From positions 32,846 to 96,845 of the IMG/VR virus record IMGVR_UViG_3300035698_006641: a stretch of 64,000 nt of DNA. One strand, written 5' to 3'. Of this stretch, positions 3,371 through 58,864 are shown in pieces (within the stretch, counting starts at the first letter, position 1; each line of letters begins with the position of its first letter). The stretch is from a virus. The notes under the pieces were generated by a model. It saw only the letters and a list, made by a program, of their open reading frames with translations. It was not told the DNA's origin and ran no database searches. Both the position numbers and the translations under genes were made by a program.

Positions 3371-3453
3371 AGCCCTCGGCCGGACTCGAACCAGCAACGA
3401 GTTTCCTCACTAGATTAGGAATCTAGCGCCTTATCCGATTAGACTACGAGGGC
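3371..3453 (-). tRNA. tRNA-Arg (anticodon CCT) with a 14-nt variable arm; CCA not encoded
   Basis: GCCCTCG/CGAGGGC acceptor, D arm with GGA (A20), CTAGA-TTCCTAA-TCTAG anticodon arm, GCTGG-TTCGAGT-CCGGC T arm. Confidence 0.9.
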
Positions 3454-18508: not shown

Positions 18509-21500
18509 TTACTCACTTTCTATATTCTTAATACTGTCAGACTCGTGATACAGCCGAATAGCGGCCTCTTCCTGGCGAGGAGCACTAAAGCTTTTGATCT
18601 TCTTTAGGTACCCAATTATACGAGTAGCGTGGCTAATATCTTCAGATCCACATTTGAGACATTTAGTCTGCTTGGAGAACTCAACGTGGCCACAGTCAGG
18701 ATTTTCACAACATGTTCGTAGTACGTTGGTTGTAAAGTATTCACACCCTGAATGAATAGCCAAATTAATAAGAGCTATATACCCTTCTTTAGTGGGATGC
18801 TCATCTAAGTTTAAATGCAGAGCCTGTCCACCATCGAAGTTTTTAATAAACTCTGACCCATGAAGCATAAATTTGTCCACAATAGAGATCTTTGGATCCT
18901 CGACCGGGAACATATATGAGTTATAGCAATCACGAGGAACTCGAAGCCCATCCTGTTTATCCCATCTGGCATTCTTTTTAGCGAGACTTTCAGCTGGAAC
19001 TTGCTCAGTATTAAATTTGTATCCATACTCTTTTTTGGCTGCTTTATTAGCCTCGGAGATGGTCACCAATACTTTGTTAACGAACTCTAGATACTCTCCG
19101 TCCGGGGTAATAGGGATCCCTTGAGACTCTGCGGCCTCTACAATACCATTTACTCCAATAGTGAGAAACTGCTTATCCATATCAACGAACCCTGCATCGT
19201 AGAATGGGTATAGTCCGGAGTCTCTAAATCTCTCAAAGATATGTCGATGGGCCACTTGGTATTTGTGAACACGATCAACAATGCTTTTAAGATTCTTTCC
19301 CTCTTGGACTATTCTACTTATATTCAGGGTTATCACGTTTAACGACCCAGTGGACACCCCACCAGCACCTAGAGAATATGAGAACTCATTAGGTTCATCT
19401 TCGTCCTCTAACAAAGAGTTTTTAAGACGGCAGCAACTTGAGAGGCTATCTACACTCTTGCTGAGATACATGAACATGAGACTACCCTTACTCAAGTCAT
19501 CAGCAATCATGTCAACAAACTCCGGGTCTTTTGGACTAATACCGTCATGCAGGATTGTAGCGGTCTTGACAGGGAACGTGAGTACTGACTTAGTATTCTC
19601 TTCCCGAATCATATCAAGAGCATACTCTTGAAGTTTGTTGTAGGACTTCCAATTTGGTTTAATCTCCGGGATTGACGGGTAATACATGGCACCATACAGA
19701 GCGTCGAAATAAGACCTATCAAAGATACTGATGTTCGTGAAACAGCTTTGGGCGTTTCTTGATCCAGCAGGCTCATTAATTGTGTACAGAAATGTTTCTA
19801 AGCTTTGTTTAATATCCTCTAGATTAGTCTCTAGATAATTATCACCGTAGTCATGTCTAGCAAAAGCATCGAAATGAATTAAAGCCCCAGGGATTCCTAC
19901 AGCACCAGCTACCTGGCTGCTAACCATAAACACAGTGTTAAGCAATTGCCCGACATATGCTTGAAGGTGCTTCGGTGGTCCACTCTTACCTCCAAGAGCC
20001 TTGGTTCCTTTTTCTAACATTGGAAACAGACTTATAGCCGCACAATTATGAACCCACAACCCGTTACATACAAAGGTACTAGACTCGGTTGTTATATCGT
20101 AAATGTAATCCATGGAATCCACAACATTACCCGACGTAATAGGCTTAACAGAGTCTATTGAGCACCACCCGCTTGTATACTTTATATAAGCATCCTTTTC
20201 AATCATGTGCTTAGCCTTAAAGGAGTGCGGTAACTCTGGGCACCCAGGGCGTTTGTTAAAACATATTCCCCAGATGTCGTAGTTTGTGGTGTACTCGGTG
20301 TTGTTCCCAAAAGGCAACGATTGGTGCTGATTTCCTCCGGTGTATCCAAAGTGGTGCAACAGGGTCGTGAGTTGGGTTATAGCTCCTCTTGAGGAAAGTC
20401 TGATATTACCAGACCCGTTGTTTATGTTTCCATCACTGTCCAGAAGACCGGAGATTACCCCCAGGGCAAACCCTTCGGTGAATTGGGTTATGTTTACGGG
20501 AAGAGTTTTGTTACTGGACCCATGCGATATACCTAAGACTTGACTCATAAACCGAACCAACTCGTGAGAATTGATCCGAAGTCTGGTGCAGTCCGTCACG
20601 TGACTCCCAGACGGCTTTACGTCTAACACCGAATGCAGTCCGAATTCCCTGTATGCGATATCTGCCAATTCCTTCAAAGGCTGGGTATCTTTCTGGGTAA
20701 AACATAATTCAGAGGATAAGCCCTCTCCGTCCGGGGACATGTGGTAATTTCCGTCTCCAATAAAGAATCCAACAAAATATCCTACACTAGAGTTAAGATT
20801 AATGTGTTTCCTAAACGGCTTAAAGCTACCGCCCTCTATTGTCTGCGTTAAGTAATAAGAATCAAACTCTTGGATCGGGTTTGACGCAGACTGATACATA
20901 TTGATAGATTCTTGTCCATTAAACTCCAACTCCGAACCAACCCTTAATTGATTCCCCTCAGCGCAATCAGCCGCTACCGTAGTGTCCTCCTTATCCTCAC
21001 TCATTATCATAGGGTGATTATCTGTGACAATTATATCCTCACCGAATGTTGTCTTGACTCGCACCATGTCACGGTGACGGCGCTTCCTTACAAGCCTAGT
21101 TATATTAGTAGTACCGTCCTTATCTTTTATACTCATATCAATTGGATACTTACAATACACCTCATCGTCGATATTGTCTAATTCCTCGAACTCGGAGCAC
21201 AAGGAATAAAGGCTTTCAAATGGACACAGATAATTCACTCCTTTATAAGAGACTGAAATAGTCTCAAACGGACTGTAGGTATATGACGTAGCAAGACTTG
21301 TTTCATCATTGATATAGATCGCATGATCCTCAATGTCTCGTATGTATTGTTTAGCCAGTCTACGACCCTGATCTGGACCAAAGGACTTAACTAATTGTTC
21401 TTGTAGTAAAGCTCGGTTTATCTGAATATCTTCACTTTTATGGGCCTCACCTTTCAATGACGCAATAGTCTTTTGTTCTTGGTTAGCGTTTGGATCCACT

Positions 21501-21610
21501 AAAGCACCAGTTGCCGCATTGTCTGCATCGACATAATTGTCTATTGCATCCAAGTGAAAGCAAGTTTGATCCTTCGTTAGTTCCATCATAGTAATCGATT
21601 TTTTACGCAT
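18509..21610 (-). CDS. nrdD: anaerobic (class III) ribonucleotide reductase, intein-containing (about 621 aa after splicing)
   Basis: SSCCRL finger loop, TGSLNVITLN, EQVPAESLA, C-terminal Zn motif and TRIIGYL glycyl-radical motif. Confidence 0.95.
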   Translation of the reverse strand: MRKKSITMMELTKDQTCFHLDAIDNYVDADNAATGALVDPNANQEQKTIASLKGEAHKSEDIQINRALLQEQLVKSFGPDQGRRLAKQYIRDIEDHAIYINDETSLATSYTYSPFETISVSYKGVNYLCPFESLYSLCSEFEELDNIDDEVYCKYPIDMSIKDKDGTTNITRLVRKRRHRDMVRVKTTFGEDIIVTDNHPMIMSEDKEDTTVAADCAEGNQLRVGSELEFNGQESINMYQSASNPIQEFDSYYLTQTIEGGSFKPFRKHINLNSSVGYFVGFFIGDGNYHMSPDGEGLSSELCFTQKDTQPLKELADIAYREFGLHSVLDVKPSGSHVTDCTRLRINSHELVRFMSQVLGISHGSSNKTLPVNITQFTEGFALGVISGLLDSDGNINNGSGNIRLSSRGAITQLTTLLHHFGYTGGNQHQSLPFGNNTEYTTNYDIWGICFNKRPGCPELPHSFKAKHMIEKDAYIKYTSGWCSIDSVKPITSGNVVDSMDYIYDITTESSTFVCNGLWVHNCAAISLFPMLEKGTKALGGKSGPPKHLQAYVGQLLNTVFMVSSQVAGAVGIPGALIHFDAFARHDYGDNYLETNLEDIKQSLETFLYTINEPAGSRNAQSCFTNISIFDRSYFDALYGAMYYPSIPEIKPNWKSYNKLQEYALDMIREENTKSVLTFPVKTATILHDGISPKDPEFVDMIADDLSKGSLMFMYLSKSVDSLSSCCRLKNSLLEDEDEPNEFSYSLGAGGVSTGSLNVITLNISRIVQEGKNLKSIVDRVHKYQVAHRHIFERFRDSGLYPFYDAGFVDMDKQFLTIGVNGIVEAAESQGIPITPDGEYLEFVNKVLVTISEANKAAKKEYGYKFNTEQVPAESLAKKNARWDKQDGLRVPRDCYNSYMFPVEDPKISIVDKFMLHGSEFIKNFDGGQALHLNLDEHPTKEGYIALINLAIHSGCEYFTTNVLRTCCENPDCGHVEFSKQTKCLKCGSEDISHATRIIGYLKKIKSFSAPRQEEAAIRLYHESDSIKNIESE
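20045..21280 (-). mobile_element. intein in NrdD (412 aa) with LAGLIDADG endonuclease; first residue Thr
   Basis: extein NDETSLATSY|CAAISL; block B VTDNHP; FVGFFIGDG and ISGLLDSDG; terminal YDITT...WVHN|C. Confidence 0.9.
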
Positions 21611-31473: not shown

Positions 31474-32317
31474 TAGCGTTTAATTTAGCCAATCCCGCTT
31501 CAACAGTCTTCCGATAGGCTTCCGGGACCTGTGATAGATCAACCGGCATTGGAGCCGCTGGAACTGGTACCGCTGGGGCCACTGGGGCCGCTGGTGCTGG
31601 GGCCACTGGGGCCGCTGGTGCTGGGGCCACTAGAACTGGTGCCGCTGGGGCTACTGGTGCCGGTGCTGGGGCGCTTGCCAGAACAGGTGTGGGGAGTGGA
31701 GCAGCAGAGACAGCATTGGTTGCTGCTGAGTTAACCCACTCTACATATTCATCTGAGGAGGTAATCTCATCTTGTACCCACTGTGGAATACTACCAGGAA
31801 CCGCAATATCACCAGATGCATCCGGCTCTAGAGCAAAGAACTCTGGGGCAATAGTTCCAGCAATAGCTGCTACTGTTTCTGGAATCTCTGTATGATTAGT
31901 GATTTTGAACTTTCCTTCTTTGTACTCTTCAATCGTAACCCATACGTTCTTTCCGAGCAGGGTTGACGGATCAATCCCTTCATCTAAAGAGCCCTCATGA
32001 GATGCTCCTAAAATAGCCTTGACCTTCTTGTAAAAGGCAGAGGTTTTACCAGATTTCGGGTTAAACCAGAGATTAAACTCTGATCCATCCAAAATGGTCA
32101 TAGGGAACTCTGTTCCGGTCTTATCTTTATAGGTATGCCCAGCCAACTCATATTTCAACGCGATTTTCTGACGTCTGTCATCAATCGCTTTATCTTTGTT
32201 GAAGAAGTTAGGGTGTGTACCTAAGTTATACACGCCAACTACCACAGCGTGAACTGTTCCAGTTGGGTAAACGAGGGACTTAGATTCTCCCTCTTCTCGT
32301 TTTAGTAAAAATGCCAT
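31463..32317 (-). CDS. putative single-stranded DNA-binding/annealing protein with Pro/Ala-rich tail
   Basis: PTGTVHAVVVGVYNLGTH...LLGK...IPQWVQDEI; lies between polA and uvsX. Confidence 0.6.
   Translation of the reverse strand: MAFLLKREEGESKSLVYPTGTVHAVVVGVYNLGTHPNFFNKDKAIDDRRQKIALKYELAGHTYKDKTGTEFPMTILDGSEFNLWFNPKSGKTSAFYKKVKAILGASHEGSLDEGIDPSTLLGKNVWVTIEEYKEGKFKITNHTEIPETVAAIAGTIAPEFFALEPDASGDIAVPGSIPQWVQDEITSSDEYVEWVNSAATNAVSAAPLPTPVLASAPAPAPVAPAAPVLVAPAPAAPVAPAPAAPVAPAVPVPAAPMPVDLSQVPEAYRKTVEAGLAKLNANAG
31572..31630. repeat. 24-bp tandem repeat encoding PAAPVAPA
   Basis: gctggggccactggggccgctggt x2 plus a partial copy. Confidence 0.8.
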
Positions 32318-32336
32318 ATATTTCTTTCTGTTGTTG

Positions 32337-32834
32337 TTATGCTTCGATTTCGAAAAGACGTTTCCGCATCGGTTTTATCAAAGTATAAGATTTTTCACTC
32401 ACAGCATAAGGATCATCTGCGAATATCGTAAGGTGGTCAATAACCCGGTCTTGAAGGTAAGGGGTATAGCGACGTTGGTCCAGTACCGCAAATAGATCAA
32501 AGAAGTTCGTACGGGCCATTGTCTCATACTTGTGGTCCACAGCCTTAGTTACTCCGTTTTCAAGACACGACCCGATAACGAAACTATGCACGGCGAGAAG
32601 CATCTCAGCGTACACTAGCGGTTTCGGCATATCAAGGATCGAGATCTTGAGAAGTCGGGTGTTGAGGACCATTCCGAGATCTACACGGACGTCATCACAA
32701 ATTTTATTTATTTTCTTATCTCCGATGTTACCCGTATACAAAGACGAACGAATAGTACTGACCGATTCGTCGATAGCTTTAGTGATCCATAAGGCCAGAT
32801 CGCGTTTTCCCCACTGCGTAATTGTTGCTGCCAT
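32337..32834 (-). CDS. hypothetical protein
   Basis: ORF with AGGA RBS. Confidence 0.6.
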   Translation of the reverse strand: MAATITQWGKRDLALWITKAIDESVSTIRSSLYTGNIGDKKINKICDDVRVDLGMVLNTRLLKISILDMPKPLVYAEMLLAVHSFVIGSCLENGVTKAVDHKYETMARTNFFDLFAVLDQRRYTPYLQDRVIDHLTIFADDPYAVSEKSYTLIKPMRKRLFEIEA

Positions 32835-32932: not shown

Positions 32933-33232
32933 TTACATGTCAGCTAAGCTCTCAGCTATAGCTAACTCCATTGTTGTTGAGTGAGACCAATGGTATTCAT
33001 ACTCAATGTCTGTTTTAAGTTTAAGCCCAACAGATGGGATTTGCGCCATTTCCTCCATTGCCCATGGTACAATCTCTTTGGCATACTGCTCTACGAAGCT
33101 ACAATGCACGATAGAGTACACGGCATCGTGGAATGGGCAGATCACAGAGAATGGAGCATTTGGATATAGCCTCTTGTACTTAGCGAGGTTTCCCATTGCT
33201 AGTTGGAGGATTCCGGCCACGGTTGATTGGAT
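32933..33232 (-). CDS. polA: DNA polymerase A exon 4 (IQSTVAG...FHDA motif C)
   Basis: joins exon 3 in frame as AINFP|IQSTVAG. Confidence 0.9.
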   Translation of the reverse strand: MQSTVAGILQLAMGNLAKYKRLYPNAPFSVICPFHDAVYSIVHCSFVEQYAKEIVPWAMEEMAQIPSVGLKLKTDIEYEYHWSHSTTMELAIAESLADM

Positions 33233-34429
33233 CGATTTTGTTACCCAGCAGGCTCTTTATCCTGCTGTTCTAACGCTAGGATGCGTTTGGCATATTCAAC
33301 TTTAAACGTACTGAACTCATGCTCAGTTTTTGTGTGCTTCAGCTGGTTGCAGTTTTTGCAACACGGGGCAATATTACTCGGTTTTATTAGCTCAGCGAAC
33401 CTCTCTAGGTTATCCGCTGAACTAAGCGGGGTCCGGTGGTCAAATGTAGTAACCTCGGTGGTTAGGGTTTCACCACAGTATACACACCTATACCCAACAG
33501 ACTCTAACATCTGAGTAAGATCTTGAGGTTTGATTACACTAGGGAGGTCATCGATCTTTGGATCTACAGTATCGATGAGCATCGATAGCTTCTGAGTTGC
33601 CCTAGAGTTTATTGAGTAAGCCCTCTGACGAAGATAGTTATGTGTAAATGAGTCCGGTCGTTTATTACCGCTGAAGTACTTATCTAAGCACTCATCGCAT
33701 AACTTATGCACGCGACCACCAGAGGTTCCTCGCTTACCAGCTGTATTAGAGAACTCCTTTAGAGACTTTTTTCCGAAGCACTTTGAGCAAATCCTCTGCC
33801 CTGTAGCTTTCAGCTCTTCATTCATCTCATCAATTCCCAGCTCCCTTTCCCCAAATACCCTACTTCTACGAGCATCAACTACCCTAGCAGACTTACACGG
33901 GGTGCACTCTGTATAGGCTGGTTTGCTCAAATCTGAGTTATCTATAGGTACCCCACACGTTTTGCAAGTGGTTCTACGGGTTTCACGCCAGTCAACCTCT
34001 TTAGTAGGGCCCAACATTCTTCGACGTCTTTTAGACTCTCTTATAAAAGATAATTGACACTTCTTACACCTAGGAAAAGACTTCTTGGTCATATCAGAGT
34101 TATCAATATAGGTTCCACAGTCTTTACATGTGGTTCTTCGCGGCCACCCGCCTTGTTGTTTACGTTTTGTTGTTTCCATTGCATCCTTTACAGTCTTACG
34201 TTAGTCCAGGCCATATCATAACCACCATTTGGTGGTCCAGAGCGCTCGTGGACGAATTATAGGCGGTCTGCCCAGTCGTCTGGTCGTTGCACTTTCGACG
34301 GGTTCCCCCGAAACTTAGCTCATGATTACCAAACTACCACACTAGGCTGACTAAGTCAACCAAAAGTAGTAGCACTGTAAAGGCTTCCCATGAATTCACT
34401 CTGTTTTTATTCCCCAATTCCAATATTTT
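33233..34429 (-). mobile_element. group I intron 3 in polA (1197 nt) with HNH ORF
   Basis: exon ends in U (CCT), intron ends in G (AAAATCG); GTGCAACGACCAG and GATATGGCC core elements; 3' GGATAAAGAGCC hairpin. Confidence 0.88.
33241..34179 (-). CDS. intron-encoded HNH homing endonuclease with tandem Zn fingers
   Basis: CVYCG...FDHRTPLS...NIAPCCKNCNQLK; two RRTTCKxCG..IDNSD..C..C repeats. Confidence 0.85.
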   Translation of the reverse strand: METTKRKQQGGWPRRTTCKDCGTYIDNSDMTKKSFPRCKKCQLSFIRESKRRRRMLGPTKEVDWRETRRTTCKTCGVPIDNSDLSKPAYTECTPCKSARVVDARRSRVFGERELGIDEMNEELKATGQRICSKCFGKKSLKEFSNTAGKRGTSGGRVHKLCDECLDKYFSGNKRPDSFTHNYLRQRAYSINSRATQKLSMLIDTVDPKIDDLPSVIKPQDLTQMLESVGYRCVYCGETLTTEVTTFDHRTPLSSADNLERFAELIKPSNIAPCCKNCNQLKHTKTEHEFSTFKVEYAKRILALEQQDKEPAG

Positions 34430-34693
34430 AGGGAAATTGATGGCTGCTCTCTCTTGAGAAGCCATTATACTCCTGCTTGAGCTATGAAAGAAGTACCTTC
34501 TCATCCCAAATGGGTTCTCAGCGTATCCCGGATTATATACCGCGGCACGTTGTCGATCCATGTACTCTTCTAGTTTTGGGTAACTGTTAAAGATACCCTC
34601 AATTACTCGTTCTGCGTAGGCTTTGTCAGCGTCCTTAATCCCAGCAATGGTTAATTGTCGGGCTAGTGAGTAAGCTGAGCGGCCATAGATTAA
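34430..34693 (-). CDS. polA: DNA polymerase A exon 3
   Basis: LIYGRSAYSLA...GYAENPFGMRR...ERAAINFP. Confidence 0.9.
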
Positions 34694-35061
34694 CGGTTTT
34701 GTTATCCTACTGGCTTTTTATCCAATAGTTCTGCACCTTCATTTTAGGTTATAGATGCAGCCCAGCATATCTTTTAACCCAGTAACGGGTCTCCCGGCCT
34801 CGTGGTAGCTGATAGGCGGTCTGCCCCTGCTACTATGCGTTGCCCCTGGATCCCATTCCTGGGAGCCTTCGGTTCTGGTTACCCTCCTCAGGGCTTTCCA
34901 GCTTCATTCCGGGATTTTAATTTGGCTATGAATTCGTTAAAATGTAATAAGTATTTTTGGGTGTCATCCCCAAAACTACTTATTACATTTTAACTTAATC
35001 GGCATTTAGTAACTCCTAATCTCTTTAGTCGTTATCATATAATACCGTCCTTCATTTATCA
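34694..35061 (-). mobile_element. group I intron 2 in polA (368 nt, no ORF)
   Basis: splits motif B LFG|LIYG; U at exon end, terminal G; TCCCGG/CCGGGA P3; GCATA/TATGC P7. Confidence 0.88.
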
Positions 35062-35274
35062 ACCAAATAGTACAATCTTACTTGCACTTCTAAGAGGGTT
35101 CATTTCCCTCTTAACGTACTTCTTTCTGTTCTCCCCATCAGGCACCTTTATTCCAAATGCCCGTATTGCAGTCTCACAGTGAATACACCTGTCATCATCC
35201 TCTGAGATTGATATTAGGTTTTCGTCCCCTGAGACTCTTGCTACTGCTGATATTTCTGCGGCTTGGTAATCTGC
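35062..35274 (-). CDS. polA: DNA polymerase A exon 2
   Basis: ADYQAAEI (motif A), IHCETA, RSASKIVLFG (motif B). Confidence 0.9.
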
Positions 35275-35565
35275 CTTGCATGTTCCCGTGTGGCTCTTTA
35301 TCCACACCTCTCGCTTTTCTTTTGTCATATAGCGAGATTAGACTATTTTTTGACCTCGTAGAGGTCTCCCGGACTCTTGGATTTATTATATTCTACATAC
35401 TGTAGTTTCAAAACCTAGTCGTTGCACGTGTCAGAGGTGTTACCCAAGGACTTCCGTTCGAGTTGCCCTCTTCAGGGGTTCCTCGTTTTTTCCGGGATCA
35501 TAATCCAAGTGATCGCTCACTTGGACGGCGCTAATCTAGTTGATTATACAACTAGACTGTTATTC
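35275..35565 (-). mobile_element. group I intron 1 in polA (291 nt, no ORF)
   Basis: splits motif A VIIG|ADY; U at exon end, terminal G; GTGCAACGACTAG and ATAGTCT (R/S, P7); TCCCGG/CCGGGA P3. Confidence 0.9.
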
Positions 35566-37785
35566 ACCAATAATTACATAGCCAGGAGGTGCTTTAATGC
35601 AACTCCTAATAACGTCGTACCTCGGGTCTAGTAGACCCTTATCCACCAACTCTCTACTATCTGCACCCTCCCATTTGTGCTCGTCAGAGAACATCTCATC
35701 ACTTAACGCGAACTGTTTTCTGATACTAGGTTCGGCGGAGGCACCGGGTAGGTTATTAAGGTTAGGCTTTAAACTTCTAAACCTTTGTGTCTCGGTAGTA
35801 GCTAAGTACGTCCCTCTGATCATTCCATCGTTATCTACACACCCTATCAATCCTGAGTCATATACCTCCTCTACGGATCCATCCTCGTCCTCAATGACAG
35901 ATGGTGGTCTCAAGAAGTTTGTTACAACTTGGTTAATAGCTTTATAGTTGATCACGGCATCCAGAAGATGCTCGTATCCTGGGTTAGCTTGAGATACTAG
36001 GGTTAACGCGTCTCCACTTGTTCCAGGACTTTCACTCATTTTGTCCTCCTCGTCTAGGGAGGCCCATTCCTTAGGGTATTTTCCGGTAGTCTGCGACGGT
36101 TCAAGTCCCAAGGTCTCTATGCCTTCAGGGAGCTTCTTAGTGCAATACCTTTGACCAAATAGATAACCCCTCAATAACTGACTGCCCGGATCAAATCCTT
36201 TCCAGGTCATATCCTCTAGAACACGTAGCAACTCCTCTTGCTTCTCTAAGAATAAAGATTGTAACTTTTTCATTAACGTGAGATCTACAGGCATACCAAC
36301 GTACTCAGGTTCAAAGATCCCAACGTCAGCCTTGCGTACCACGTTTAGGTAAGCGTCCAGCTGCGTCCAATTCTCTTTACCTTCGATTAAGTATCCAGCG
36401 TACCGAGGATCAATAGGGTTATTCCTAAGAGCCTCTTCTAGTTGTGGCCAGATCTGGATAACAGAATCTACATCTTTAGATGAGTATAAGAACATAATGT
36501 TATCCGGTATCTTGGAGTATCCATGTTTCTCTGTGTGAGACTTAAGTCCAGGAGTAGCTTTGATGTATTCTGTTAACCTGTTCTCATACATACCTAGGTC
36601 CGTATACTCTAATGCGCAATATGTTAGACCTACTGACTCAGTCTGTGGCTTAAGTGCATGGTATGCAGTCATTGTGTCAAATGCAAAGTTCTCTCTACAA
36701 TCAATACCAAGTCTCATCAAATGAATTAAGTCAACTTTAAAGTTATGACCTCCCAACTCTACACCGACCATCTCGAATAGAGCTTTCAGATACTCAACTT
36801 TTTCTGCGTGGTCTGGATACGGGACTAAATCAGGGTCAGTCATAGCCACAGTGAACGCCGTGTGTTCCTTAACAGAGAACTGTATATAACGCACTATGTC
36901 ATGCATAACGCCTTCTCTACCGTTCGGGTTGCCCCACTCGGTGTCTACGGCAATCCTTAACGGGTTACCGCGGATATATGCGTCCTGTAAGTATTCCATA
37001 AGAATATCCGTTACTACGGACTTAAGCTCTTTTGCATCTTCAATGAACCTGTAATCTTTATATTCCTGTGGTACGTCCCAAGGCATCTCTTCACCACCCA
37101 AGAGGGCAACTATCCTGATAAGATCAAGTTCTAGAGACATCTCTGAGCTGGGATTAGAGATAAGCTTGTACGGGTCCACTGTGTAGTAGACCGGGATACC
37201 TTCGTACGTCTCATGGGACTGCCCTTGGAAGTTTCCTACAAGCCCTTTAGACCCGTAAAGACCTTTTAATGAACCGGACCCAAGAACCAATATGGCCTCA
37301 GGGTTAATACGGCTTATAGACTCTCTTAGCACAGGTTGAAAAGCTGTGATAAACGGAACAAGTAGTTTCCCACCTTTCGGATAGAATGGAACTGCGTATG
37401 TGCAGTATATATCTTCCGGTTCCAATTCTGGAACTCTTCCGACAAGGGTGTCAACTATGAGCTCTAATTCAGGTACTGGCAGTCTGTTCTGCTGTGTACC
37501 TTCAATAGACGGGTGTGGGCAGACTATTAACAGCTTAGTTTGCCTAGACGGGTGTGGCTTTAGGTACTTTCCTCTAAGAGCATCATCCGATACTTGGTTG
37601 TTAATCTCTTTTGGCCAACCCCACAGTCCACTAGGAATTGTAGTGCACTCGATTTGTTTTAGTTTTTTAGTAAAGTCGGCTGTAAACGACTGTTTCTCGA
37701 TTAAGACTTTCTGAATAAACTGATCATCAGTTAAATCTAACTCTTGCGCTATACTGTGCAATGATGGTTTTAATAAATCAGCCAT
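35566..37785 (-). CDS. polA: DNA polymerase A exon 1: UDG-like domain, 3'-5' exonuclease and start of polymerase domain (spliced product about 998 aa)
   Basis: AVDTE, GHNFKVD, FDTM, YSSKDV; TETQRFRSLKPNLNNLP; IRSCIKAPPG. Confidence 0.92.
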
Positions 37786-37822: not shown

Positions 37823-38107
37823 TTAATCTTCAGCCTCTAATGAGGCAGAGACATCAGAGTCATACATAATAACGTAATCAACCCCATCCCTCTTGATGTC
37901 TACTCCTCCGTACTCCGGCAAGAGGACAACGTCATCTACATTAAGAAGATTAGGTACAAGTATTCCGTTGATTACCCTTCCTGGGCCAACGGCTACTACA
38001 GTGCCTTGATTCTTCTTAATTCCGCTAGAGACAAAAATGCCTCCAATCTCCTCTTCAACTGGGTCCTTTTTAATTAAGACCCGATTCTGTGTTGGTTTAA
38101 TATTAAT
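37823..38107 (-). CDS. groES: co-chaperonin GroES (probable ATT start)
   Basis: NIKPTQNRVLIKK, GGIFV, GTVVAVGPG, VLLPEYGG; GGAG 7 nt before ATT gives 94 aa. Confidence 0.88.
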   Translation of the reverse strand: MNIKPTQNRVLIKKDPVEEEIGGIFVSSGIKKNQGTVVAVGPGRVINGILVPNLLNVDDVVLLPEYGGVDIKRDGVDYVIMYDSDVSASLEAED

Positions 38108-38123
38108 ACTTAATCTCCACTTT

Positions 38124-38489
38124 TTAGTACATAACCCTATCTCGCATCCGTCTCCCGATCTCTGCGGACTCATTTCTGCATAAAAGATAAATCCAGAACG
38201 GCCCATACTGGTAGACATCTAGAAGTCTTTCCATTACTACCATGATACCTGGGATGAATCTCCTATTGCCGATAAGCTCAGACACTATATTGACATCGAT
38301 ACCTTTGACAGCATCGTCAATAACATATCTACTGAGTCTCATTTCCGGGTGATCTTTCGTAGGAACGAATTCACAGATCGCTGCATCAACTAAATCTTTA
38401 GCCTTTTCTCCATTTTCAGTATGAGGCTCGGTGCAGCTTATAATCTGAGGGAACATTTTGATTACAAGATTATAGACTTTTTCATACAT
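38124..38489 (-). CDS. hypothetical protein following the E2-like gene
   Basis: overlaps the E2-like stop codon. Confidence 0.55.
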   Translation of the reverse strand: MYEKVYNLVIKMFPQIISCTEPHTENGEKAKDLVDAAICEFVPTKDHPEMRLSRYVIDDAVKGIDVNIVSELIGNRRFIPGIMVVMERLLDVYQYGPFWIYLLCRNESAEIGRRMRDRVMY

Positions 38490-54942: not shown

Positions 54943-55282
54943 AAATAATCCTTTGTTTTATTAATTTCCGACAAGATTCTCTGTGTACTTAATGTTTCAT
55001 TACAAGCTTTTTCAGCTTGGAGTTTGATCTACTGAGCCTAAAGGCATACATAGCTTTTATTGCTAACAGCTCTACCGAAAATCCTATATCTCTCAATACA
55101 GCCCTCGGTGGAACATAGTCCTCAATAAAATATCGATCAGTTGATGATACGGCGAATGCCATACACCCTCCCTCTTTTGTGCGGAGGTTATTCTTAGTTA
55201 CGAATAATTTGTATGGTTTTTTGTGTAATTTTGTTATATGGTTCTTGTGTGTTTGACCCAAAAGAGTCTGAGAAAGAATACT

Positions 55283-58200
55283 ATGTCGGAAATTGAAAAT
55301 GTTTTAGCCAAGTACGTGGCCATGATTAAAAACGGGGAACTTACTAATTTGTCACCCCTTCTACCTTTACTGTTTACATTAAGAGGCAAGCCGTTCTCTT
55401 TGAAGGATCACTTTTTGTGGGAGCCTTTGTTTAACGTGCAGGTCCCCAAGAAGCGTACGATTGTTTGCGGAAGACAGGTAGCAAAATGTATCCTAAGTAC
55501 CTCTAAGGTAACTACTTACACCGGAGAACATATAGCTGCTGCTGACGTAGCTGTTGGCGACAAGTTGTTGTGCCTGAACGAGAACGCCCCAGGGTGGGAG
55601 TCCACCTCCGGATTGGTTACTAATGTCTTCAATAACCTAAGCAAACCAATGAGGGTTATCACAACCCGTATGGGCTCTGAGGTGACGGTGTCTAATGATC
55701 ATCGCCTTAGGACTGCTGGTGGGTATGTGCGATCTGAAGAGCTATCTGTAGGGGACAGGATCTGCAGGATACGTAGGGGCGGTGAGTTTGAAAATAAGAA
55801 AGTGGACCGTAAAAGGTTAGTTAAGTGGTTATCAGAGGACGGGCTTATTGGGTGTAGATCTCATGAAAAGTTTATTCCAGAGTGGGTTTTTTCATTGTCC
55901 AAAGCGGATACAATTACTTTCATATCTAGGCTGTATGCCACGGATGGTTGCATTAAATCCATTAATGGGAGCCCGTCAATAACCTATTGTAGTAACTCAA
56001 GGGCTTTGATAGATGGGTTGCAGTCACTTCTCACTAAACTTGGCCTACCATCCTCTATTCGTTTCTGGGACCCAGAGGTTGGTAGAAGAGCCTACAGCCT
56101 CAGGATCGAGACCAGATCCTCACAGGACTGGTTCTTAAATAACATTAAGGTGCCAGGCAAGCCAATCCCAACCGGACTCATTAAGAAGAAGTCTAGCAAC
56201 AACAGGGACACTTGGCCTAAAGATCACGTAACATCTATCATAGAGAGACACACCAGAGACACTATTTACCAGAGGGGTGAAAGTCTACGTAAACACGGAT
56301 TGAGAAAAACCCTAAAATACCAACCAAGTATAGAAAAAATACACCAATACATCGAGTACTTCGATCTCATAGGCAATCATGATGCTGTGAGTGACCTATC
56401 TATATTAGTTGATACTGATGTGTATTGGGACACTATTGAGTCAATTAAGGAGGTTGGTGAGTGTGACGCAATAGACTTTGAGATCGAAACACACCACAAC
56501 TTCGTACTAGCTGGGGGGATTGTGACCCACAACTCGGAGACTTCTGCTGTGCAAATGCTTTCTTGGCAACTACTTAGAGATTATATGAACATTCTCTATG
56601 TAGCCCCAAGGGACAACCAAACAAAGATCTTTTCAAATGACAAGGTGGGTCCGTACATAAAGAGCTCACCTGTTTTCAAGGATGTAGATAAGAGTCTCCC
56701 GAATGGGGTGTATACTCGGTCAATTAAAGATGGAAGTAACATGTACTTCTCCTATGCCTTCCTTGATGCCGAGAGGATAAGATCAATTACGGCAGGGGCT
56801 GTATTCTATGACGAAAGTCTTGTCGGAGATACTCTAATTCCGACATACGACTTGTCCGGAGTAAGAACAGTTAAAAACATTTCTGACATTAAAGCCGGAG
56901 ATATAGTTGACAGCTTCACTGATAAGGGTTGTAAACTATCAAGTGTAGTAGTCTGCGACGCTTCCTTTCATGGAAATCAGCCGTGCTACCGTGTTACCAC
57001 AAGTAGTGATAAATCGGTTGTCGGGACCTCTACACATCCGTTGTGGACTAATGAGGGGCCTCTTCGGATCGGAGAGATGATAAGAAATGTATACAGACCT
57101 GCAATCACAGATAAAGAGAACTTTCTCATAGATCCAGATCCAGATGTTGTTAGGGACTCTTCTCGGAGATGGGAACCTATCAACACCGAAGCACAAGAAG
57201 ACGGCGAGTTACCGGTCCAGACACGGGGAACATCAACATACATACAATCAAGACAAATACATGATATTGTCAGAGTACGTAATAGAGCCTCCTTCACTAA
57301 AGAAGAACGGGAACTTCAAGGCCTCATCTTGGACAACCCACCGACACAAGGACTTTCACTGTGTGTCCTTGATGACATACAGCAAAACCACCGAAAAAGG
57401 GAACCCGAAGTCTCTGAGATAGGAATCAAAGCAGTACATGGGGATGAACCCGGAGAAGCTGGCAGAGACGGAGGCCCTGAGAGCCTATCAGTCCCTACGA
57501 GATGTAAGGAGACAGATGACCCAATTGTAAAAATAGAATATGTTGGTATGATCGACGTATGGGACATAGAGGTAGAAGGGACACACAACTACATACTAGA
57601 TAACGGCTTTAAAAGTCTTAACTGCCAAGATATCAACCCTGCATTCCGTGTACCTATCCAGCAGGTCATGGCCGCATCCCTCGACTTCGGTGTGACTCAG
57701 AGTACAGGAACACCCAAGACCTTCGATAATAACTTAGAGACCCAGTGGGCTCAAAGTAGTCAAGCTGAATGGTGTATACCGTGCAACAAATGCAACAAAT
57801 TGAATGTTGCTGGTGTGGAGTTTGACTTGCTCAAAATGATTCAGCCACACGGCCTAGCTTGCGCCAAGTGTGGTGCCCTCATCAATACCAGAGAAGGTTG
57901 GTGGGAACATAGGTATCCCAACAGACGAGAACGCCATGAGGGATACCACGGTCCACAGCCAGTCTTCCCGATGCATTGTGAGAAACAGCCAGATGAGATA
58001 AATACCAAGGTAGGCCGGAAATGGACGGATCTCCTTTATAACCAAGAAGATATGCCAACCTACGGCTTCTACAACGAAATCCTAGGTACTTCTTACGACA
58101 ATGCTGATGAGCTTATTAGTAAAACATCCTTAGTGGAGAACTCTACACTAGATCATGATAATACCTTAGATGCGGCTATTAAACTTGCACACAACAGAGT

Positions 58201-58864
58201 TAAGTATACTTTCGTATCAATGGGGGTTGACTGGGGCGGAGGCGGAGAGAGCGGAGTAAGCCGTACAGCTATTACCGTATTAGGGTGGAAGGCAACAGGA
58301 AAACCAGATGTCATTTACATGCATCGCATAACCAACCCAATGGCCACTGACCAGGAATCTCTGTACATTAAGCAACTAGCCGCAAGATTCAATGTTGACC
58401 TACTAGCTGACGACTATTGCGGAGCTGGTGAGGCCAAAGAGATCATACTGTTGCAGACTGGATTCCCTTATAGCAAATTAATGCCCGTTGCCTACGTACC
58501 ATCTACTGTAGGTAAGATGATGGAGTACGTTCCAGCAGAAGATAAGGTTAGCCGTCCATACATCAAGGCTGCTAGAACCAAGAGCCTGTCAATAATGGCG
58601 GCACTAATCAACAACGGATATTATACCTTTCCAAAATTCGAGTCTTGGGACTCCCACGACTATCCGAATAATCTATTGTCATTGGTACAAGAGAAGCGCG
58701 ATAGGTCTGGTGGTTCTGCTCGTTACTTCATCACTCACAAAGCTGGTAGAGCTGATGATTTGGCTCATGCGCTCATGTACGCTTCTATTGGGTACTGGTT
58801 TGTCACCAAGAATACTCCGGACTTCACTAAGCTACTCGGAAGAGAGTTTTCTGAAGAAGTCTAG
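55283..58864 (+). CDS. terL: terminase large subunit (GpA-like) with two inteins; about 575 aa after splicing
   Basis: Walker A GRQVAK|SET, Walker B FYDE|CQD, TGTPK, CNKC/CAKC, NEILG, MGVDWG nuclease, DDLAHA. Confidence 0.88.
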   Translation: MSEIENVLAKYVAMIKNGELTNLSPLLPLLFTLRGKPFSLKDHFLWEPLFNVQVPKKRTIVCGRQVAKCILSTSKVTTYTGEHIAAADVAVGDKLLCLNENAPGWESTSGLVTNVFNNLSKPMRVITTRMGSEVTVSNDHRLRTAGGYVRSEELSVGDRICRIRRGGEFENKKVDRKRLVKWLSEDGLIGCRSHEKFIPEWVFSLSKADTITFISRLYATDGCIKSINGSPSITYCSNSRALIDGLQSLLTKLGLPSSIRFWDPEVGRRAYSLRIETRSSQDWFLNNIKVPGKPIPTGLIKKKSSNNRDTWPKDHVTSIIERHTRDTIYQRGESLRKHGLRKTLKYQPSIEKIHQYIEYFDLIGNHDAVSDLSILVDTDVYWDTIESIKEVGECDAIDFEIETHHNFVLAGGIVTHNSETSAVQMLSWQLLRDYMNILYVAPRDNQTKIFSNDKVGPYIKSSPVFKDVDKSLPNGVYTRSIKDGSNMYFSYAFLDAERIRSITAGAVFYDESLVGDTLIPTYDLSGVRTVKNISDIKAGDIVDSFTDKGCKLSSVVVCDASFHGNQPCYRVTTSSDKSVVGTSTHPLWTNEGPLRIGEMIRNVYRPAITDKENFLIDPDPDVVRDSSRRWEPINTEAQEDGELPVQTRGTSTYIQSRQIHDIVRVRNRASFTKEERELQGLILDNPPTQGLSLCVLDDIQQNHRKREPEVSEIGIKAVHGDEPGEAGRDGGPESLSVPTRCKETDDPIVKIEYVGMIDVWDIEVEGTHNYILDNGFKSLNCQDINPAFRVPIQQVMAASLDFGVTQSTGTPKTFDNNLETQWAQSSQAEWCIPCNKCNKLNVAGVEFDLLKMIQPHGLACAKCGALINTREGWWEHRYPNRRERHEGYHGPQPVFPMHCEKQPDEINTKVGRKWTDLLYNQEDMPTYGFYNEILGTSYDNADELISKTSLVENSTLDHDNTLDAAIKLAHNRVKYTFVSMGVDWGGGGESGVSRTAITVLGWKATGKPDVIYMHRITNPMATDQESLYIKQLAARFNVDLLADDYCGAGEAKEIILLQTGFPYSKLMPVAYVPSTVGKMMEYVPAEDKVSRPYIKAARTKSLSIMAALINNGYYTFPKFESWDSHDYPNNLLSLVQEKRDRSGGSARYFITHKAGRADDLAHALMYASIGYWFVTKNTPDFTKLLGREFSEEV
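55487..56533 (+). mobile_element. intein 1 in terminase Walker A (349 aa), partial LAGLIDADG
   Basis: C1 CILSTS; SNDHR block B; only one LAGLIDADG-like motif (ISRLYATDG); HNFV...VTHN|S. Confidence 0.9.
56816..57622 (+). mobile_element. intein 2 in terminase Walker B (269 aa); Ser1, penultimate Leu
   Basis: SLVGDT; GTSTHP block B; VWDIEVEGTHNYI...KSLN|C. Confidence 0.88.
57087..57530 (+). pseudogene. LAGLIDADG endonuclease remnant in an overlapping (+1) frame inside intein 2
   Basis: ATG after GGAG; QMLLGTLLGDG...H...Q..Y...K motif; in-frame TAG at 57129 and 57420. Confidence 0.75.

Follow-up and report, generated by a model that had tools for sequence, protein, structure and literature searches.

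We analyzed a 64,000-nucleotide window, bases 32846-96845 of the 96,845-base-pair (bp) IMG/VR record IMGVR_UViG_3300035698_006641, a metagenomic contig of an uncultured phage estimated to be ~66% complete, and focused on its gene for a family A DNA polymerase (polA). The gene is part of a minus-strand replication module with a GroES-like gene, helicases, a ligase, UvsX-like and SbcC-like genes, and NrdD. In the table of open reading frames (ORFs), it appears as four polymerase fragments with a 312-amino acid ORF between the last two. Read as four exons and three predicted group I introns, the locus has the following layout, in the direction of transcription and with window positions:

35566..37785, minus strand: exon 1, 740 amino acids; weak uracil-DNA glycosylase (UDG)-like N terminus, 3'-5' exonuclease, and N-terminal part of the polymerase domain; ends VIIG
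35275..35565, minus strand: intron 1, 291 nucleotides (nt), with helices P1-P9.1; starts GAAUAA, an in-frame stop after one codon
35062..35274, minus strand: exon 2, 71 amino acids, motif A (ADYQAAE) through the first half of motif B (RSASKIVLFG)
34694..35061, minus strand: intron 2, 368 nt, no ORF; starts with UGA, an in-frame stop
34430..34693, minus strand: exon 3, 88 amino acids, LIYG of motif B to AINFP; Pfam DNA_pol_A match at 2.6e-13
33233..34429, minus strand: intron 3, 1197 nt; guide GGGGAA (nt 15-20), no P2, P3-P8 core, P5a/P5b extension
33241..34179, minus strand: ORF of intron 3, 312 amino acids; three N-terminal CxxC...CxxC zinc-ribbon-like modules and a C-terminal HNH nuclease
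32933..33232, minus strand: exon 4, 99 amino acids and stop; IQSTVAG..., motif C (PFHDAV), phrog_17 positions 1153-1236

A scripted excision of 35275-35565, 34694-35061, and 33233-34429 leaves 2,997 joined nt, equal to 998 codons and a stop with zero internal stops. The restored junctions read VIIG/ADYQAAE, KIVLFG/LIYG, and AINFP/IQSTVA, all in phase 0, and each 5' exon terminates in U and each intron in G (3/3). A preliminary description of this DNA had given the same coordinates, four fragments, ~998-amino acid product, junctions, phase, and boundary bases, and all were reproduced exactly on recomputation. Exon 1 matches Pfam DNA_pol_A_exo1 (5.9e-10) and the phrog_17 DNA polymerase family (4.6e-40), with weak matches to DNA_pol_A and UDG, and the exons fall on successive segments of the Pfam DNA_pol_A profile (89-149, 157-205 in exon 2, and 217-300 in exon 3). 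The set of features defining a family A DNA polymerase, motifs A (DYxxxE), B (RxxxKxxxFGxxYG), and C (HD) in this order together with a 3'-5' exonuclease, is complete only after splicing. The UDG superfamily match is a side observation: it covers amino acids 118-212 (window 37150-37435, minus strand), N-terminal to the exonuclease domain, and is weak (Pfam UDG, E value 1e-3, below the cut-off).

With exon 1 as the query, the protein collection yielded two uninterrupted homologues, P0002 (997 amino acids, 76% identity) and P0004 (1,006 amino acids, 48%), and the spliced 998-amino acid product aligns to both without a gap at any junction. Identity to P0002 is 76% for exon 1, 66% for exon 2, 77% for exon 3, and 82% for exon 4, with exons 2-4 gap-free throughout; as these exons are as conserved as exon 1, the parts 3' of the first interruption are not decaying. 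The phage's own polA is present in the collection only as a truncated 741-amino acid exon-1 product (P0001), which bears out the expectation of the preliminary description that automated annotation would mis-call the gene. At the DNA level, no close relative of the window was found among the GenBank phages searched, and the nearest GenBank phage polymerases are ~24% identical to the polA product. Queries with exon 1, a five-protein alignment, P0005, or the HNH protein gave no relatives in IMG/VR and the JGI metagenomes.

Using an alignment of P0002 to the Klenow fragment (E value 1.4e-26), we mapped the insertion sites to Escherichia coli Pol I. Site 1 corresponds to S703/A704, one codon ahead of the catalytic D705 of motif A; site 2 to G763/L764, within motif B (K758...F762 G763/L764 I765 Y766 G767); and site 3 to P847/M848, in the AINAP/MQG segment that forms the INxP/xQ helix.

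Helices were located and verified base by base in each intron. P1, P3-P9, and P9.1 are present in all three, and every guide sequence fits its own 5' exon with the exon-final U paired to G: UGGU/GCCG in intron 1, UUGGU/GCCGA or AUUUGGU/GCCAAAU in intron 2, and UUCCCU/GGGGAA in intron 3. All have the group I core, with its P3-P8 and P4-P6 domains. A bulged C is present in each P7, whose first pair, the guanosine-binding one, is G-C, and the introns end in ...GCAAG, ...AACCG, and ...AAUCG, respectively. In intron 1, the exon's UGGU and the intron's G1 pair with CGCCG (guide GCCG, nt 37-40), followed by a 10-bp P1a hairpin and a 9-bp P2 with a GCGA tetraloop. The core then comprises P3 (UCCCGGA/UCCGGGA), P4, P5, P6/P6a, and, after an A and the bulged C, P7 (GACUA/UAGUC); a hairpin separates P7 from P3', and P8, P9, and P9.1 complete the structure. 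An ATG at 35328, in the L9 loop, reads in frame into exon 2 and gives an 89-amino acid ORF call (35059..35328). Because no ribosome-binding site is present for it, we take this start codon to be there by chance.

Intron 2 has the same core as intron 1, with P7 GCAUA/UAUGC and a nested P7.1/P7.1a. Two candidate guides can pair with its one exon end. One, GCCGA (nt 59-63), precedes a hairpin that would be P2, a layout found in intron 1 and in family members reading UGCCGU-hairpin-UUAUAA-P3; the other, GCCAAAU (nt 136-142, 7 bp), lies directly 5' of P3, as does the guide of intron 3. The hairpin that follows the first guide is near-perfect and 27 bp long (nt 68-126; window 34936-34994, minus strand); it would be a P2 of unusual length or, alternatively, have been inserted into the P1 loop, and Rfam scores its plus strand as a chance microRNA-like match. 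The sense strand of intron 2 has no ORF of at least 40 amino acids and intron 1 has only the ATG running into exon 2, in agreement with the original count of two introns without an ORF.

Intron 3 has P3 CAGAGUG/CGCUCUG and P7 GACCA/UGGCC, the latter with one A·C mismatch; its P7.1, GACGA/UCGUC, is fully compensated relative to GUAGC/GCUAC in intron 2. P9 is formed by CUAACG (nt 226-231) and CGUUAG (nt 1155-1160) and encloses the endonuclease ORF. The three introns had been described as sharing their P3/P7 cores, which is correct for the P3 of introns 1 and 2 (UCCCGG/CCGGGA), whereas intron 3 has a different, compensated P3 and the three P7 helices differ from each other by compensatory changes.

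The 3' layout is common to the three introns and consists of P9, 2 nt, a P9.1 stem with the loop AUAAARAG, and a short tail ending in G. The P9.1 hairpins are:

35288..35307, minus strand: intron 1, stem GUGUGG / CCACAC, loop AUAAAGAG
34707..34728, minus strand: intron 2, stem CUAUUGG / CCAGUAG, loop AUAAAAAG
33246..33267, minus strand: intron 3, stem CAGCAGG / CCUGCUG, loop AUAAAGAG; its sequence is at the same time coding sequence for the C-terminal end of the HNH protein

This shared loop and tail architecture accounts for the 3' hairpin motif that the preliminary description had noticed: the 64-kb window contains GGATAAARAGCC three times and no more, each copy near the 3' end of a different intron, in comparison with 0.52 occurrences expected by chance. 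Inspection by eye gave no pairing partner for the conserved L9.1 loop that held for all three introns. With an insert between P7 and P3', the introns belong to the IA type. Subgroup IA2 is characterized by two adjacent hairpins, P7.1 and P7.2, at this place (PMC3428280). In introns 2 and 3, as in the wider family described below, the insert folds as one stem enclosing an inner hairpin; the P7.1 insert of introns 2 and 3 (GGGCAGACCGCCUAU) is itself divergent in comparison with that family.

Standard models recover little of this. At gathering thresholds, Rfam finds no intron in the window, and it finds no further intron in the whole record. In a permissive search with RF00028 (Intron_gpI), intron 3 gives a full-length match of 44.7 bits (E value 3e-9) and intron 1 a weak one of 18.3 bits (E value 0.26). 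The check with a group I covariance model, as recommended in the preliminary description, gave matches below the cut-off of 50 bits for introns 3 and 1 and no match for intron 2. Minimum-free-energy folding gives z-scores of -6.1 for intron 1, -8.5 for intron 2, and -2.1 for the core of intron 3; such folding cannot represent the P3/P7 pseudoknot. We built a covariance model, R1, from the three intron cores with the structure given above. It scores 139.5 bits on intron 1, one of its training sequences, and in the whole 96.8-kb record matches these three places only.

Outside this phage, the 3' half of intron 2 matches 20 GenBank phage records with blastn (84-95% identity over 33-45 nt), the matched part being the final 35-37 nt. 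In annotated loci, the element is always preceded by an ORF for an intron-type endonuclease, and the 3' part of a split gene comes just after it. The carriers include the RecD-like helicase gene of Bacillus phage PJN02, tape-measure genes of Clostridium phage phiCD211 and Staphylococcus phage 6ec, capsid genes of Dulem virus 41 and bajarodcaudo virus 1, and the helicase gene of crAss-like phage cr6_1, and the core of intron 1 matches the split tail gene of Staphylococcus phage vB-SscS-F1. R1 matches in these GenBank loci have E values from 1e-14 to 1e-5. When aligned, the 3' ends show a covarying stem around an invariant loop and a GAUAACAA tail, so that the shared element reads CUAUNGG-AUAAARAG-CCNAUAG-GAUAACAA. 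A scan of IMG/VR for this element gave more than 108 loci, in comparison with roughly one expected by chance by our estimate. R1 finds 54 matching places in 80 IMG/VR loci, and one of these matches (L077) lies directly upstream of a polA exon starting near the SPO1-type site. Judged from these matches, the 3' hairpin with the AUAAARAG loop is the apparent mark of a phage intron family wider than the three polA introns. Another candidate marker, the 15-mer GGGCAGACCGCCTAT common to introns 2 and 3, was rejected, as all 52 IMG/VR loci containing it are chance matches without intron context.

The predicted structure covaries across this family. In a model alignment of 42 sequences, 83.3% of cells are paired in comparison with 55.6% after shuffling (0 of 500 shuffles reaching the observed value), although the alignment misplaces the P6-P7 region of intron 1, whose cells there are undercounted. 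Changes on both sides are found for 36 of the 38 pairs, and the covariation score of 0.60 falls to 0.11 or less when partners are slid. P3 is 96% paired with 7/7 pairs covarying, and P7 occurs in the covarying variants GCAUA/UAUGC, GACUA/UAGUC, and GCGUA/UACGC. Alignments of the cores with MAFFT were set aside, with several helices misregistered. The three group I introns proposed for polA are thereby supported by colinearity with intronless homologues, the helices of each intron, partial Rfam matches, and covariation among 42 members.

RF00028 was also run on nine GenBank phage loci at an E value of 0.01 and gave a single match (L064), which is a different intron overlapping one weaker R1 match; the remaining cores found by R1 in these loci went undetected. 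The sub-threshold scores of the polA introns are therefore read as a limit of model coverage. Seven IMG/VR loci (L070, L120, L138, L141, L097, L081, and L072) have two or three R1 matches within a few kb each, and multi-intron clusters of the family are thus common. In the phiCD211 locus (L058), a family intron (2279-2535) ends ~25 nt before a separately annotated Intron_gpI (2562-2827), upstream of the tape-measure gene, and the pair looks like tandem introns with a very short exon between them.

The polA introns may, we suggest tentatively and at rather less than even chances, be part of a large and perhaps undelimited lineage of phage group I introns, recognizable by a nested P7.1, a P9.1 with the nearly invariant AUAAARAG loop, a GAUAACAA tail, and frequent use of a GCCG guide for sites ending in ...GGU, and largely missed by RF00028. 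If this is true, many "split" genes and "pseudogenes" for phage replication and structural proteins would be spliced genes, and the invariant L9.1 loop would be an unrecognised tertiary-contact or protein-binding element.

Within this family, the three introns are not each other's closest kin. Pairwise identity of their cores is ~65-67%, no higher than to the introns of other phages, which rules out a recent duplication within the gene and makes them old members of the family. Among the close relatives of the polymerase, P0003 (749 amino acids), P0005, and P0013 (744 amino acids, from a 64-kb contig) all terminate in ...VIVGE at the site of intron 1, the final E and stop being what the first six bases of intron 1, GAAUAA, encode. 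P0007 has its first residues at the site of intron 3, where exon 4 opens with IQSTVAG, and P0008 is continuous through INFPIQS, as are the uninterrupted P0002 and P0004. Intron content thus seems to vary among the relatives, a pattern that mobile introns would give.

The ORF of intron 3 has features of a homing endonuclease gene. It is preceded by AAGGA 6 nt 5' of the ATG and ends 8 nt ahead of the 3' splice site after traversing the 3' strand of P9 and P9.1. The HNH motif is encoded in a peripheral loop (P9) of the intron. The C-terminal HNH domain has its own CxxC pairs and an intact HNH motif, and the protein matches Pfam HNH with 23.1 bits (cut-off 21.4) and PHROG families of HNH endonucleases with E values down to 7.9e-14. 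Among the endonucleases of other members of the intron family, we found no close relative of it. The protein would nick or cut intronless polA alleles and drive homing.

We consider it very probable that polA is transcribed as one precursor mRNA with three IA-type group I introns and spliced to encode a 998-amino acid polymerase. The last 4-7 nt of each exon would pair with the intron's own guide to form P1, with a U·G wobble at the splice site. An external guanosine held in P7 would attack 3' of the exon-final U, and the terminal G of the intron would then take the guanosine site and allow ligation of the exons, restoring motif A, motif B, and the INxP/xQ helix. The in-frame stop codons at the 5' ends of introns 1 and 2 would exclude ribosomes from their ribozyme cores. 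Intron 3 would express its zinc-ribbon/HNH endonuclease from the P9 loop, and the enzyme would cut or nick the intronless polA of co-infecting relatives near site 3. The ORF-less introns, located 264 and 845 bp upstream of intron 3, would spread by co-conversion with it or through an endonuclease acting in trans.

Anatomy, colinearity, and family-level covariation are direct observations, and several points weigh against the rest of this account. Splicing and catalysis, the activity of the endonuclease, and mobility are what we infer from sequence, and the relatives with and without introns (P0002-P0008 and P0013) were compared at the protein level. None of the three introns reaches the RF00028 gathering score of 50 bits, and intron 2 gives no Rfam match even at E values up to 10. 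The pair counts lean towards the model structure, because the alignment of 42 sequences was fitted to a model made from the same three introns. The A·C mismatch of intron 3 is the second pair of P7, adjoining the guanosine-binding pair (1 of 42 family members), the P10 pairings of introns 1 and 2 are weak, and the frame of exon 3 stays open for 32 codons into intron 3 before a stop.

Some of these points would also fit an alternative in which at least one intron, most plausibly intron 3, is inactive as a ribozyme, with polA a decaying pseudogene or splicing dependent on a protein cofactor. The P7 mismatch, Rfam scores uniformly under the gathering score, the z-score of just -2.1 for the intron 3 core, and the origin of the sequence in an incomplete metagenomic contig are compatible with it. 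Yet exons 2-4 are free of stops, frameshifts, and gaps and match the intronless homologue at 66-82% identity, on par with exon 1; all other core helices of intron 3 are intact and its Rfam score is the best of the three; its HNH ORF is intact; and the z-score says little given the pseudoknot. We regard this alternative as improbable. That the inserts are something other than ribozymes (an intein, a group II intron, a transposon, or an assembly chimera) or that the polymerase is made as separate subunits has next to no likelihood and is already contradicted by the present data: automated gene calling does yield four polA fragments and probable inteins occur in the TerL and NrdD genes of the same genome, but the inserts have exon-frame stops within 0 to 32 codons and therefore cannot be inteins, they hold group I cores with family-wide covariation, no Rfam group II intron match appears in gathering-threshold or permissive searches, the boundaries follow the U/...G rule and restore a gap-free alignment, and the exon 2 and 3 fragments (71 and 88 amino acids) each contain just half a motif.

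Three introns in a phage polA are in line with earlier findings. Published polA introns are located at E. coli Pol I positions 674 (SPO1, SP82, Bastille, and Pf-WMP3), 676 (phiL7), and 881 (PhiI and W31), and the same paper notes nicking enzymes of the HNH type and introns that begin with a stop codon (PMC3428280). Bastillevirinae polA genes with two or three group I introns have been reported, Rfam and GISSD models under-detect phage introns, and IA2 is heterogeneous (PMC11878797). The introns described here resemble those of Bastillevirinae and the SPO1 group in being IA-type, in their host gene, a family A polymerase of phrog_17, in their highly conserved coding sites, in the stop codon at the start, and in the HNH endonuclease that many of them have. 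They differ in position from the 2012 list (703/704, 763/764, and 847/848 here, in comparison with 674, 676, and 881 in PMC3428280; the present sites may have been reported elsewhere), in having the HNH domain C-terminal, behind three zinc-ribbon modules, unlike the systems of PMC11878797 and PMC3428280, and in a host polymerase only ~24% identical to any of a GenBank phage. A further parallel is orf142 of phage Twort, which, as Landthaler and Shub 1999 are cited in PMC11878797, has three group I introns: by that description, both are single phage genes with three related introns and short exons between them, although the Twort gene encodes a tail tube protein and not a polymerase. With two- and three-intron phage polA genes and the three-intron Twort gene published, three introns in polA are not new in kind, and the statement that this is an unusually heavy load was too strong. 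In comparison with the other phage introns with the AUAAARAG loop, the polA introns share an R1-matching core, the P9-P9.1 architecture, the terminal motif, and a location just upstream of the downstream exon and beside intron endonuclease ORFs. In most of those introns, however, the P1 loop holds the ORF, ahead of the core, whereas that of intron 3 lies in the P9 loop, and their endonucleases are unrelated to the intron-3 HNH protein. The three polA introns are an ordinary kind of selfish RNA element and leave the knowledge of group I introns unchanged.

Several other features of the genome were observed. A gene for a GroES-like co-chaperonin (phrog_3188, 3e-13; window 37823-38218, minus strand) is directly upstream of polA. 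The terminase large-subunit (TerL) ORF (55238-58864, plus strand, 1,208 amino acids) matches Pfam Intein_splicing at amino acids 108-432 and LAGLIDADG_3 at 228-303, and as its match to the terminase ATPase starts only near amino acid 808, it would contain at least one intein and possibly two. The ORF for the anaerobic ribonucleotide reductase NrdD (18509-21610, minus strand, 1,033 amino acids) matches Intein_splicing at amino acids 158-522 (33.1 bits, just below the Pfam cut-off of 35.8) and LAGLIDADG_3 at 277-357; both matches precede the NRDD domain, and they suggest an intein with a homing endonuclease. The record has two transfer RNA genes, an 83-nt one with a long variable arm in the window (3371-3453, minus strand) and one at ~32309-32381 of G000:C1 (L056 16309-16381, minus strand).

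The locus shows an essential phage polymerase that is annotated only as a truncated fragment, with one of its introns missed outright by Rfam and the other two left below the threshold. The family that R1 recovers is widespread, with introns in phage genes for helicases, tape-measure proteins, capsids, tails, and polymerases, and the model could mend many fragmented annotations. The locus is a clear example of selfish elements at the most constrained codons of an essential gene, at motif A, motif B, and the template-contacting helix, and intein matches are present in the terminase and NrdD genes of the same window. It would provide a natural system for studying the co-conversion of ORF-less introns with a neighbouring endonuclease-bearing intron.

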